Positions 1-2,225 of a DNA stretch of 2,543 nt are shown here, piece by piece. Position 1 is the first letter of the stretch; each line of letters starts with the position of its first letter. The notes beneath the pieces are model-generated. The model did not search any database. It was not told the DNA's origin and saw only the letters and a list, made by a program, of their open reading frames with translations. The translations under genes were made by a program, and so were the position numbers. Location of the stretch: assembly GCF_024298765.1 (NCBI RefSeq), contig NZ_CP101218.1. One strand, 5' to 3'. The stretch comes from Escherichia coli (lineage in GTDB: Bacteria > Pseudomonadota > Gammaproteobacteria > Enterobacterales > Enterobacteriaceae).

Positions 1-133
1 TGTCGAAAAGTTGCAGCGGAAAATGGGACAGGATGTGTATTCGTCATACCGCGAATACATTCGCTTGCATGAGAATACCTCCTGTCAGGGCAAGCCCCGA
101 CACCCCAAACGTGCAAAATGGAGAGTCATTGCG
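1..133 (+). promoter_or_regulatory. Leader region upstream of mobC; candidate operator or oriT-like (bom-like) region
   Basis: Seen in sequence: 14-bp palindrome GCGAAT-ac-ATTCGC (51-64), GAATAC direct repeat (53-58, 73-78), 9-bp palindrome CCTGTCAGG (81-89), and the 12-mer GCCCCGACACCC (94-105), which I recall as also present in the pBR322/ColE1 bom region. SD-like GGAGAG (119-124) lies 9 nt before the ATG at 134. The same frame is open back to position 2, so this region could instead be coding. Confidence 0.25.
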
Positions 134-559
134 ATGACTAAAAATAAACGTAGTGGTTCAGAAGTACGGCAGAGAACTAAGGTTATCACCCTTAGAGTAA
201 ATAACAGAGTCGCAAGCGAAATCAGACGGCGAGCGAAGAACGAAGGACTGACAATTTCAGAATATATCAGGACGGCAAGTTTAAATAATGAAATAAAACA
301 GCGCGTACCTTCCAGGTATTTAGATGAATTAATCCGACTTGGTCGGATGCAGAAGAAATTATTTGATAAGGGAAAGCGGCCGAAGGATAAGGAGTACCTC
401 GAGGTGATGCATAAAATAATTTTACTTTGCGATGAAATGAAAATAGTAACGAAGCGAATTTCTGATGTATATAATGAAATGGATTTAATAAAGGATGAAA
501 TAAAAATAATAAAAAGGATACATAAAGATAAATATCCAGGTTCGGATTTATTCAAATAA
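134..559 (+). CDS. mobC: Ribbon-helix-helix DNA-binding protein, MobC/MbeC-like plasmid mobilization accessory protein (141 aa). The frame is open to the window start, so alternative starts at ATG 23, TTG 11 or off-window cannot be excluded.
   Basis: ORF track frame 11..559. ATG at 134 is preceded by GGAGAG with a 9-nt spacer. The N-terminal basic tail followed by RTKVITLRVNNRVASEIRRRAKNEGLTISEYIRTASLN fits the RHH beta-strand/helix/helix pattern (R-x-I-x-L-R-V ... G-L-T-I-S-E-Y-I-R) typical of MobC-type relaxosome accessory proteins; the C-terminal half is charged and helical. TAA stop at 557-559. Confidence 0.6.
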   Translation: MTKNKRSGSEVRQRTKVITLRVNNRVASEIRRRAKNEGLTISEYIRTASLNNEIKQRVPSRYLDELIRLGRMQKKLFDKGKRPKDKEYLEVMHKIILLCDEMKIVTKRISDVYNEMDLIKDEIKIIKRIHKDKYPGSDLFK

Positions 560-755: not shown

Positions 756-1307
756 TTAACTAGATTTATCCTCTTGTTTTTCAATTGTATTTTTTCTCTC
801 AATCACAGTTGTAAACGCGATTCTGTCACCATTAAAAACAAAGTTAGGGTTAATGAAATACCTTCCTTGTCGCATTGTTTTTGCAATTATTTTCGCTTTT
901 TCCAATTCATTAAGACCTCGCTTAAAGGTTGCAAGACTTAGTCGTAATGGTTGTTTACTCGCAGAAACTTGGCACTGAAGAAACGCTTCTAAAACTAAGG
1001 TATCCAAATCAACTTCGTCTTTTGAGAGTGCAGAGTTCTGAACGGACCAAACTAAAACACCGAAGGCTTTAATTCCCGCAGAAGATAGCTCAAAAGTTAA
1101 GCCAATATTTGCTGTAAAAAGTTTTACAAACTGTTCGCTATCAACACGTTTATATGTTGTTACGTGAGTACCTTGAACCTCACCTGTGTTCTGATTGACC
1201 AGGATGTTATCATCACGACCTAGACGCGAAAGCCTAACTTGCTTCCCCTTGACAGGTACAACCATTCCTTCTAAAAATGGGTTTTCTTTATAGCGACCGA
1301 AGCTCAT
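756..1307 (-). CDS. repL: Plasmid replication initiator, RepL family (winged-helix DNA-binding), 183 aa
   Basis: ORF track 756..1307 (-). ATG at 1305-1307 on the minus strand is preceded by AGGGGTG (SD-like) with about a 5-nt spacer. The protein carries motifs I recognise from RepL of staphylococcal pSN2-type plasmids and phage P1 RepL: NTGEV near the N-terminus, a central FVKLF...GL segment, and a C-terminal LNELEKAKIIAK...YFINPNFVFNGDRI (compare LKILEEGNIIKRK...LMLNPELLMRGDD). Family assignment is from memory, not a search. Confidence 0.8.
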   Translation of the reverse strand: MSFGRYKENPFLEGMVVPVKGKQVRLSRLGRDDNILVNQNTGEVQGTHVTTYKRVDSEQFVKLFTANIGLTFELSSAGIKAFGVLVWSVQNSALSKDEVDLDTLVLEAFLQCQVSASKQPLRLSLATFKRGLNELEKAKIIAKTMRQGRYFINPNFVFNGDRIAFTTVIERKNTIEKQEDKSS

Positions 1308-1476: not shown

Positions 1477-1510
1477 ACGGTAGTGCGTACGTGCTCAATT
1501 TAGCTACCGG
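1477..1510. repeat. Degenerate additional copies of the GCTAC/GTAGC iteron motif
   Basis: ACGGTAGT (1477-1484) and TTAGCTACCGG (1500-1510) match parts of the 15-bp iteron. Between them lies the palindromic core TGCGTACG. Confidence 0.3.
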
Positions 1511-1515
1511 TTCTT

Positions 1516-1573
1516 TTCCGCTTCCTCGTCGATTCGCTCACTACGTTCGGTCACCGACTTGCGGCGAGCGGTA
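1516..1573. other. Primosome-assembly-site-like segment (ssi/pas) resembling the region just downstream of the pMB1/ColE1 origin
   Basis: Window sequence TTCCGCTTCCTCG...CGCTCACT...GTTCGG...TGCGGCGAGCGGTA shares, in the same order and orientation, an 11-13-mer, an 8-mer and a 14-mer with the pBR322/pUC backbone (CTTCCGCTTCCTCGCTCACTGACTCGCTGCGCTCGGTCGTTCGGCTGCGGCGAGCGGTATCAG) as I recall it. Not verified by a search. Confidence 0.4.
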
Positions 1574-1595
1574 ACAACACTCGCGCATTGCCGTC

Positions 1596-1621
1596 GATCC
1601 CGTTTTTGATCTGCGACGATC
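1596..1621. other. Cluster of three GATC (Dam) sites within 26 bp
   Basis: GATC at 1596-1599, 1608-1611 and 1618-1621. The window has 7 GATC in total, none in the first 1415 bp and 6 between 1416 and 1727. Confidence 0.5.
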
Positions 1622-1697
1622 GCGCCGTTTGAAGGCCTCAGGAGCACCAGAACGCGTTTTTGAGGGTCTGTCAGGGGTTTGGGCGCCTTTGGCCCTT

Positions 1698-1710
1698 AAA
1701 CGCGCTCAGA
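1698..1710 (+). repeat. 13-bp direct repeat AAACGCGCTCAGA, copy 1
   Basis: Exact 13-mer also found at 2076-2088, 378 bp away. Confidence 0.9.
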
Positions 1711-1739
1711 AGCTCCCAGACGCGATCAAATGCCAACAG

Positions 1740-1755
1740 ATGCCCGTCAGGGCAT
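1740..1755. repeat. Perfect hairpin ATGCCC-gtca-GGGCAT
   Basis: 6-bp stem (1740-1745 with 1750-1755) and a 4-nt loop. Confidence 0.7.
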
Positions 1756-1932
1756 GGGAGGCGCGAAAAATGCTTACAGAGGCTCTCAGGAGGTCAGGCG
1801 CGCCGATACCCCTAACCAGGGGCTTTCAGGTCGCCAGGAACCGCGCCAGCCTCCTGCAAAGCCGATTAGCACGGAACAGGAAGCTACTCGGTTGGGAGGA
1901 GGTCGTAGACCGTCGGTGTTGCAGCGATGGGG

Positions 1933-1986
1933 GTCTGGGGTACTCCCCAGACGGTTTCCGGTTGCGCTCAAGGCGCTGCCGGAACC
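1933..1986. repeat. Tandem GC-rich stem-loops
   Basis: GTCTGGGG-tact-CCCCAGAC (1933-1952) is a perfect 8-bp stem. It is followed immediately by GGTTTCCGG...GCGC-tcaag-GCGC...CCGGAACC (1953-1986), an 8-bp outer stem with one bulge plus a 4-bp inner stem. Confidence 0.7.
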
Positions 1987-2075
1987 GTGGCGGCTTCGGT
2001 GGTGAAGGGTGAGCGCGTTTCCAAGAGGTTCTCGAGACAACGGCATGACTGAACTGAACAGATGGAACGAGGAAG

Positions 2076-2088
2076 AAACGCGCTCAGA
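2076..2088 (+). repeat. 13-bp direct repeat AAACGCGCTCAGA, copy 2
   Basis: Exact copy of 1698-1710. The related motif CAGACGC occurs at 1717-1723 and 2085-2091. Confidence 0.9.
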
Positions 2089-2110
2089 CGCTTTGTAGCG
2101 CGCTTTTCTG
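2079..2110 (+). terminator. Weak terminator-like hairpin followed by a T-run on the plus strand
   Basis: CGCGCT (2079-2084) pairs with AGCGCG (2097-2102) around a 12-nt loop, followed by CTTTTCTG (2103-2110). The large loop and short stem make this weak. Confidence 0.2.
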
Positions 2111-2225
2111 TGTCAGGCAAGTTTGTTGTGTCTTTTGCCTTTCAGGTTGTCAGCAGCTGGCGGAGCACTGCACGGGGATTAATGCTCCCATTGCCAGGAT
2201 GAAATAAAGATTAGGAGCGACGTTA

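Follow-up and report, generated by a model that had tools for sequence, protein, structure and literature searches.

A primosome assembly site homologue joined to a conserved, non-coding hairpin cluster in small enterobacterial plasmids with different initiators

We analysed a stretch of 2,543 bases of Escherichia coli DNA (contig NZ_CP101218.1; hereafter the window), which is one complete turn of a small circular plasmid. It is close to pGF4-G (NZ_CP172224.1, 2,535 bp), with which the window shares 99.2% identity. Across approximately 1500-2200 the GC fraction is 0.57-0.65, against 0.25-0.44 in the flanks, which agrees with the initial annotation, where the block at 1580-2200 was described as a GC-rich structured island without coding potential. 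That annotation had proposed that the island is an RNAII-like preprimer of a ColE1-type origin or, failing this, an uncharacterised structured element. Comparison with some 90 distinct homologues split the island into four parts, of which two, a homologue of the ColE1 primosome assembly site (pas) and a conserved hairpin cluster that we call C, recur together as a non-coding module in constant orientation beside different replication initiators. The four parts and the hairpins of C are listed below, with the strand where one was assigned.

1483 to 1592, minus strand: primosome assembly site of the ssiA / n'-pas type, with its core at 1513-1573 (by ColE1 homology)
1593 to 1692: variable linker, called B (alignment of homologues)
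1693 to 2003: hairpin cluster C, about 310 bp, 62% GC, conserved at 84-95% (homologue comparison)
1740 to 1755: hairpin hp1 of C
1760 to 1765 with 1799 to 1804: closing stem GGCGCG/CGCGCC of C
1809 to 1822: hairpin hp2 of C
1901 to 1911: small hairpin of C
1933 to 1952: hairpin hp3 of C
1953 to 1986: hairpin hp4 of C
2004 to 2200: lineage-specific extension, called D (alignment and repeat listing)

Three overlapping open reading frames (ORFs) cross the island (1629..2012 and 1730..2005 on the plus strand, 1786..2046 on the minus strand), and their products are rich in Arg, Gly and Pro, as had been noted. Conservation at the codon level in any one frame was looked for in 88 distinct homologues and was not seen. 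When the variable columns of these homologues were sorted by coordinate modulo 3 they were distributed as 55/47/52, with no excess at third positions. The 1629 frame was closed in 86 of the 88 and the minus-strand frame in 53, and in 30 homologues the length difference was not a multiple of three. A real high-GC gene in one of the three ORFs would find its support in the 1730..2005 frame, which is open in 61 of the 88 homologues, and in the hypothetical protein annotated there in some records; open frames are, however, expected by chance in DNA of 62% GC. The lack of three-base periodicity, the closure of the other two frames in most homologues and the length changes led us to reject a protein-coding gene, the probability of which we regard as negligible. 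The island is non-coding, as originally proposed.

The segment at the left of the island, which had been described as pas-like, is homologous to a known site. Window 1513-1573 matched ColE1 1307-1367 with 80.6% identity (E 4e-9). These ColE1 positions lie 110-170 nt downstream of the ColE1 RNA/DNA switch (~1192-1201), which we placed by means of the RNAI match and the GAAAAACGCC motif. These positions agree with the place described for ssiA, a PriA-dependent primosome assembly site whose role in ColE1 has been set out previously (PMC3167613). Among 73 distinct copies of the pas the hairpin was kept by compensatory change: the outer stem CCGCU/AGCGG swaps to GUGCU/AGCAC, and the inner stem alternates between GUCGAU/AUCGAC, GCCCA/UGGGC and CUCAU/AUGAG, giving three or four complementary versions. 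The motif GAGGAAGCGGAAAAG is found on the minus strand of the window, which is the strand equivalent to the displaced strand of ColE1. By the orientation of the nick motif in the origin of transfer (oriT) of the plasmid, it is also the strand transferred first in mobilisation, if the nick site follows P-type and I-type oriT sites. The same segment occurs in pKL1, pMG828-1, pIGWZ12-type, IncX and ColE1-type plasmids. Judged from its sequence, 1483-1592 is structured and is homologous to a primosome assembly site that has been characterised, and PriA-dependent priming from it is predicted.

No other segment of these plasmids is as well conserved as C. The 94 distinct homologues of C are 72-93% identical to the window (five lineages at 72-79%, the other 88 at 82-93%). 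Between pKL1 and other plasmids the identity of C is 90-95%, even where that of the rep genes is 69-71% or where the rep genes are unrelated. Its right boundary is sharp and lies just past CCGGAACCGTG (~1989). In an alignment of 88 sequences the stem columns of C had an entropy of 0.049 and 77% of them were invariant, as compared to entropies of 0.304 for terminal loops and 0.294 for other columns, with 10% invariant; the stems were six times less variable. Stem cells were paired in 99.1% of cases and double-sided changes were found at three pairs, values that were reached by 0-2 of 500 shuffles. In a divergent lineage the hp2 stem CCCCT/AGGGG is replaced by CCCGC/GCGGG, and in one homologue (L109) the tip of hp4 is inverted with pairing retained. 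The stems of this non-coding DNA are under selection for pairing, as would be expected of a single-strand initiation (ssi) signal, with sparse covariation. The covariation analysis suggested by the initial annotation showed compensatory changes in the pas and few of them in C, where most stem pairs are invariant. The description of the island as rich in perfect hairpins was confirmed in part. The window alone holds two with stems of at least 6 bp (1740-1755 and 1933-1952), a count as high as which was found in 35 of 500 dinucleotide shuffles, and it is the homologue comparison that backs the hairpins.

We compared the folding of the island as RNA and as DNA. Folded as RNA, 1580-2200 gave z-scores of -3.2 for the minus strand and -1.8 for the plus strand. 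For C alone (1690-2005) the values were -2.1 and -1.8 (RNA) and -2.8 and -2.7 (DNA); control folds of repL and of AT-rich regions were near or above zero (+1.4 to -0.65). If C acted as RNA, then G·U pairs should be tolerated on the strand that is transcribed. Among ~3600 stem cells, wobble-type mismatches (G·T versus A·C) numbered 8 for the plus strand and 6 for the minus strand. Since G·T showed no strand bias, DNA hairpins fit better than RNA, and the symmetric perfect pairing in C weakly favours DNA hairpins. We found no similarity to known phage single-strand origins; the phage search returned short records that were the same small plasmids, together with one match to the pas only.

Island-like sequences were found in 1,914 PLSDB records, many of them through the pas alone. 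Of 5,426 complete E. coli genomes, 530 contained such sequences, and among the carriers are the cryptic 1.5-kb plasmids that are ubiquitous. A pattern scan of metagenomes added ~100 loci to the homologue set. Layout and orientation were constant, with the rep gene followed by operators or iterons, then the pas and then C. The pas-C pair lies beside RepL in the window, L002, L006, L008 and L010, beside a pKL1-type RepA in pKL1 (L005), pMG828-1 (L138) and L004, and beside Rep_3 in L007, where C is kept only to ~1876. IncX plasmids carry the pas and only 1695/1740-1787 of C, upstream of a pir-type initiator gene and next to an iteron origin, and pIGWZ12-type Rep_3 plasmids carry the pas alone in the same position. 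One plasmid (L011) has C and a pKL1-type repA, and elsewhere a complete ColE1 RNAI/RNAII origin with a pas of its own. All carriers that we inspected have either a gene for an initiator or a ColE1 origin; L004 was considered as a carrier without an initiator and was dismissed, its repA spanning the ends of the record. RepL and pKL1 RepA may be distant relatives; Rep_3, pir and RNAII clearly belong to other systems. The orientation of C relative to the initiator gene was fixed across RepL, pKL1 RepA, Rep_3 and IncX pir, which would also be expected of an ssi signal. Contigs of 0.4-1.6 kb with the module were also present in assemblies of Streptomyces, Mycobacterium, Rhizobium, Pseudomonas and others (L013-L018, L022). 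These look like contamination by the 1.5-kb plasmids of E. coli rather than evidence of true hosts, and genome-collection contigs from unrelated taxa were not used for host range.

The distribution of the module bears on plasmid typing. Window 1482-1612 and 1692-2003 matched pMG828-1, the Col(MG828) reference, at 85% and 89%. Apart from the pas-C module (pMG828-1 969-1329 compared with L005, L006, L009, L011 and L137), no sequence was shared by all records typed as Col(MG828). For initiation these plasmids variously have RepL, pKL1 RepA, a 139-aa protein without an assigned family, or a ColE1 RNAI/RNAII origin. A tblastn search with the RepL of the window found nothing in pKL1-type plasmids, so that the window RepL is not to be taken for a pKL1-type RepA. 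Since the typed records share only pas-C with the reference, we infer from these sequence comparisons that the Col(MG828) typing marker lies in pas-C and is thus a non-coding module, not an initiator.

If the island were an RNAII-type preprimer origin, then an RNAI and likeness to ColE1 beyond the pas should be found. A scan against all Rfam families at E up to 10 found no RNAI and no other plasmid RNA, and its sole match was a chance snoRNA inside repL. The same library recovered RNAI in the positive controls, namely ColE1 (73.8 bits) and the ColE1-type locus of L011 (80.8 bits). BLAST against ColE1 with 7-base words aligned only the pas, and an nhmmer profile built from 88 C sequences found nothing in ColE1 at E up to 100. 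The DNA to the right of 2003, where the RNAII promoter and the RNAI target would lie, is unrelated between carriers. As for a preprimer promoter ~550 nt upstream, a consensus scan of 1300-2543 found neither promoter nor terminator, a weight-matrix scan gave weak candidates only, and no -35/-10 pair was seen on reading C itself. ColE1 depends on a G-rich RNA stretch for a stable RNA-DNA hybrid. The minus-sense RNA of C contains 104 C and 90 G, and with more C than G a persistent RNA-DNA hybrid is not favoured. The length of the island had been likened to that of a 550-nt preprimer; we regard this as a coincidence, the conserved unit being 1483-2003 with the pas included.

Two resemblances to ColE1 found by eye were also rejected. 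The 12-mer GCCCGTCAGGGC of hp1 is identical to ColE1 1540-1551, and is marginal against shuffles and on the wrong side of the pas. The stretch ATGC(C/T)CGTCAGGG...GAAAAACGC was compared with the ColE1 switch region, and is likewise marginal and on the wrong strand for a ColE1-like layout. ColE1 matches of 12-13 nt were reached by 4-5 of 300 shuffles. We note that the ColE1 copy of GCCCGTCAGGGC lies ~175-240 bp beyond ssiA, roughly at the expected position of ssiB, the match being marginal, and that a 13-mer, ATGCTCGTCAGGG, similarly marginal against shuffles, is found just upstream of the ColE1 RNA/DNA switch (ColE1 1150-1200).

The remaining part of the ColE1 comparison concerned the AAAAACG motifs, which lie in linker B. 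This linker contains an imperfect inverted repeat (1641-1659 / 1698-1716), and window 1613-1692 is missing from pKL1, L006 and L009, with the remaining linker diverging in sequence. The motifs had been likened to the ColE1 RNA-DNA transition and placed 90-150 bp from the pas. There are two copies on the minus strand (1601-1607 and 1655-1661), which we measured at 28-88 bp from the pas core. The chance expectation is 1.07 per window, at least two copies were found in 57 of 200 shuffles, and both copies are altered or deleted in homologues. Judged by these copies and by the homologue alignment, there is no conserved RNA/DNA switch motif ~110-170 nt upstream of ssiA on the preprimer strand. With no RNAI, no likeness to ColE1 outside the pas, switch motifs at chance level and an initiator or a ColE1 origin in each carrier inspected, the proposal of an RNAII-type origin is not supported. 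Its fallback, an uncharacterised structured element, holds for 1693-2003.

The rest of the plasmid contains the following elements.

756 to 1307, minus strand: repL, initiator gene (RepL in the pGF4-G annotation; Pfam RepL PF05732, E 2.3e-6)
134 to 559, plus strand: MobA/NikA-type ribbon-helix-helix (RHH) accessory gene (NCBIfam MobA NF041264, E 1.3e-28)
20 to 106, minus strand: IncI1-type oriT (77.5% identity to the stretch just upstream of the mobA(nikA)-relaxase of an IncI1/B/O plasmid)
1352 to 1411: repeats GGTAGCTCAA / TTGAGCTAC(C/G), presumed RepL operator or iterons (repeat listing; binding role proposed from the layout)

A fourth copy of the GGTAGCTCAA/TTGAGCTAC(C/G) repeat lies at 1499-1508, within the left edge of the pas module. 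The repeats at 1352-1411 overlap a repL promoter candidate on the minus strand (TTGTTT-17-TATGAT, 1367-1339), which was rated good in promoter scoring, and this overlap suggests autoregulation by RepL. RepL and pKL1 RepA gave a weak local BLASTP match in the winged-helix region (25% over 81 aa, E 0.003), and the 139-aa protein of L009 (1587-2006), for which we found no Pfam match, has a short N-terminal motif like that of RepL (E 0.099). From these similarities, RepL (756-1307), pKL1 RepA (L005 913-1389) and the L009 protein may be deep branches of one RepL-like superfamily. In the oriT, we take the motif CACATCCTG|T at minus-strand 37-29 to be the nick region, by its likeness to P-type and I-type sites. 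The plasmid has this oriT and the NikA/MobA-type accessory gene and lacks a relaxase gene; the relaxase must therefore be borrowed from an IncI1/B/O helper. In pKL1-type plasmids the same oriT abuts the pas directly. We considered the oriT as an explanation of the island and rejected it: it lies outside the island, and non-mobilizable carriers retain the island.

To the right of C, extension D has an inverted repeat whose perfect 12-bp arms (2010-2021 / 2075-2086) are separated by 53 nt, and it has other hairpins to ~2200. D is common only to L009, at ~94%, and is absent from pKL1-type plasmids; L006 and L008 have a different sequence in its place, yet with a 14-bp stem at the same position. 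Four copies of an 11-nt motif, AAACGCGCTCA, alternate in orientation (1698-1708, 2010-2020, 2076-2086 and ~1650-1659). The copy at 1698-1708 marks the left edge of C, and those at 2010-2020 and 2076-2086 lie in the arms of D. Two of the copies enclose C as a perfect inverted repeat with a separation of 301 nt, and another pair encloses the hairpin loop of D. Beyond D, an AT-rich block at 2222-2262 has hardly changed in L006, L008 and L009, with diverging DNA on either side. Near it are two copies of the direct repeat AGTTATATTTT, 43 bp apart (2226-2236 and 2269-2279), and a DnaA-box-like TAATCCACA is found at 2390-2398. The weight-matrix scan placed its weak minus-strand promoter candidates in this AT-rich DNA, at 2258-2230 and 2266-2238. 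The block and its nearby repeats might serve for unwinding, for binding, or as a promoter directed into the island.

We put at about an even chance the reading in which the module is a portable single-strand initiation unit that needs only host factors and acts as DNA, not as the gene of an RNA primer. The initiator would open the duplex at the neighbouring repeats (1352-1411 and 1499-1508), upon which the pas would become single-stranded and fold; alternatively, the pas would fold when the minus strand enters a recipient from the IncI1-type oriT. The folded pas would recruit the host primosome of PriA, DnaB and DnaG. C, with its five to six GC-rich hairpins, would be a second ssi or lagging-strand-origin signal that serves the other strand or stabilises the unwound state. 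Counterparts of such a pair would be ssiA/ssiB in ColE1, the two ssi sites of IncQ origins, or the single-strand origin (sso) of rolling-circle plasmids. Since such a module would need only host factors, it could move by recombination among small plasmids with different initiators.

Several observations weigh against this reading. Covariation in C is thin, since 25 of 41 stem pairs never vary. Neither the G·T asymmetry nor the fold energies of the two strands gave a signal as to which strand of C is active, and no known ssi resembling C was found. Unpaired stretches, for example GGTCGTAGACCGTCGGTGTTACAGCGAT, are almost fully conserved, which hints at more than hairpins in C. At 310 bp C exceeds the classical ssi signals (~70-140 nt). 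Its invariant palindromes could also bind dimeric proteins on duplex DNA. Finally, a minus-strand gene ends shortly before the right edge of C in 25 of 34 distinct contexts, which also fits a transcript-dependent role.

That last observation leads to the possibility that C is a transcript-primed leading-strand origin like that of ColE1 or pAMβ1 but without RNAI, which would be a claim on its working mode and not on membership of the ColE1 family. Minus-strand transcripts that come from a rep gene, a cargo gene or a promoter of the AT block would run into C, where processing close to its left edge would yield a primer. DNA polymerase I would extend this primer leftward, and the pas, 120-180 bp downstream, would become exposed on the minus strand as that strand is displaced. 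The orientation of the pas and its distance from the left edge of C (1693 to 1573-1513) are indeed close to the 110-170 nt between switch and ssiA in ColE1, but this distance is not kept among carriers, the linker being deleted in pKL1, L006 and L009. In the 25 contexts the minus-strand gene to the right of C is the nearest ORF there and ends 14-260 bp from C, and it is usually repA, that of the pKL1 type included; in the window itself, however, no gene reads into the island. The weak minus-strand promoter candidates within the conserved AT block also speak for such an origin. The fold z-score of the minus-strand RNA (-3.2) would suit a primer transcript, whereas the excess of C over G in that RNA, the lack of strand bias in G·U tolerance and the missing switch motif would not. 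Against it stand also the absence of RNAI and of RNAII homology, the initiator or ColE1 origin present in every carrier inspected, and the retention of only part of C by IncX and Rep_3 carriers. We consider such an origin unlikely.

Two further explanations would have C act neither as a primer nor as an ssi signal. C may be a duplex or cruciform stability element, in other words a site for binding or topology at which, for example, gyrase, a recombinase or a nucleoid protein would help to maintain the plasmid as a monomer or to control its copy number, like par of pSC101 or the multimer suppression by ssi of the pHW126 type. Perfect-palindrome stems that are invariant around variable centres are operator-like, the sharp edges of conservation, with different cargo joined exactly past hp4, recall recombination hot spots, and loss of ssi leads to multimerisation in pIGRK and pIGMS31. 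Five different palindromes would nevertheless require several proteins, and the compensatory changes and the inverted hairpin tip preserve pairing and not sequence. Reading of the sequence by eye gave no convincing match to a Xer (cer/dif-like) core, a Tus ter consensus or a phage cos site. A stability element is thus quite unlikely in our estimation. The other explanation, that C is a structured regulatory RNA (a small RNA for copy-number control or host targeting) or the 3' untranslated region or terminator of an upstream gene, is slightly less likely still. It would account for folding that is stronger than in shuffles, for the conservation of the hairpins and for the position of C directly past the repA stop codon in pKL1-type plasmids. 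In the window and in other RepL plasmids, though, C is in the 3' flank of no gene; no Rfam family matches, no promoter, U-tract terminator or discrete transcript ends are predicted, and G·U pairs are again without strand bias.

Known systems share parts of this arrangement. The ssiA of ColE1/pMB1 (φX174-type, PriA-dependent) has the same AAGCGG-bearing hairpin, with the identity to 1513-1573 given above, and also lies beside an origin. The pas of the window and its relatives differs in flanking protein-initiator origins (RepL, RepA, Rep_3, pir) rather than an RNAII origin, and in being fused to the 310-bp C, which ColE1 lacks. The ColE1-type RNAII/RNAI origin, too, is non-coding, structured and rich in GC, measures ~0.5 kb and adjoins a homologous pas; the island, in contrast, lacks RNAI and any homology to RNAII, neither a switch motif nor a promoter region is conserved, and its carriers encode initiators. 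In pKL1 and pMG828-1 (1.5-1.9 kb; 'Col(MG828)' in PlasmidFinder and MOB-suite) pas and C are 84-90% identical to those of the window and the layout of rep, operators, pas and C is the same; the window differs in its RepL initiator and in having linker B and extension D. In a paper citing the work on pKL1, the oriV of that plasmid is placed upstream of repA, with IHF and RepA sites (PMC3832669). We found no description of the function of C in the literature that we reached, which did not include the original pKL1 papers.

The REP module of pHW126, pIGRK and pIGMS31 (ssi, conserved region, iterons, rep) also belongs to small enterobacterial plasmids. Their winged-helix Rep is a distant relative of RepL, repeats lie close to the rep promoter, and a palindromic ssi-like element is present as an accessory, a likeness that we draw from the layout. 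In these plasmids, which have a RepL-related Rep and iterons, the ssi is non-essential and its loss leads to higher copy number and multimers (PMC6854812; bioRxiv 10.1101/2022.12.05.519187). Their ssi is outermost, whereas here the 310-bp cluster lies beyond the pas. The single-strand origins of rolling-circle plasmids and single-stranded DNA phages, G4-type primase sites and ssiA/ssiB of the IncQ oriV are likewise non-coding, oriented and exchangeable hairpin clusters that depend only on host or priming factors. C is longer than these, we found no sequence similarity to them, and its role in priming is putative.

The pas is known biology, while C is an abundant component for which no functional description was found and which is probably already in use as a typing marker. 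The Col(MG828) label therefore appears to mark an accessory module, and to define neither a replication system nor an incompatibility group. C might also be a self-contained unit of an undescribed kind, either a leading-strand start supplied by read-through transcription and dependent on host factors alone (like ColE1 or pAMβ1, without RNAI, and shared by plasmids with different initiators) or a new class of single-strand origin. We think this unlikely; if it were true, the 'Col(MG828) replicon' of hundreds to thousands of enterobacterial genomes would be C and not an initiator system. C could, in addition, yield a compact vector part that needs only host factors. Carriers can be as short as 1.5 kb, and yet the 310 bp of C are conserved more tightly than rep; C must have an important function in cis, and whether its role is in priming, as an origin or in stability bears on how the smallest enterobacterial plasmids replicate and move.

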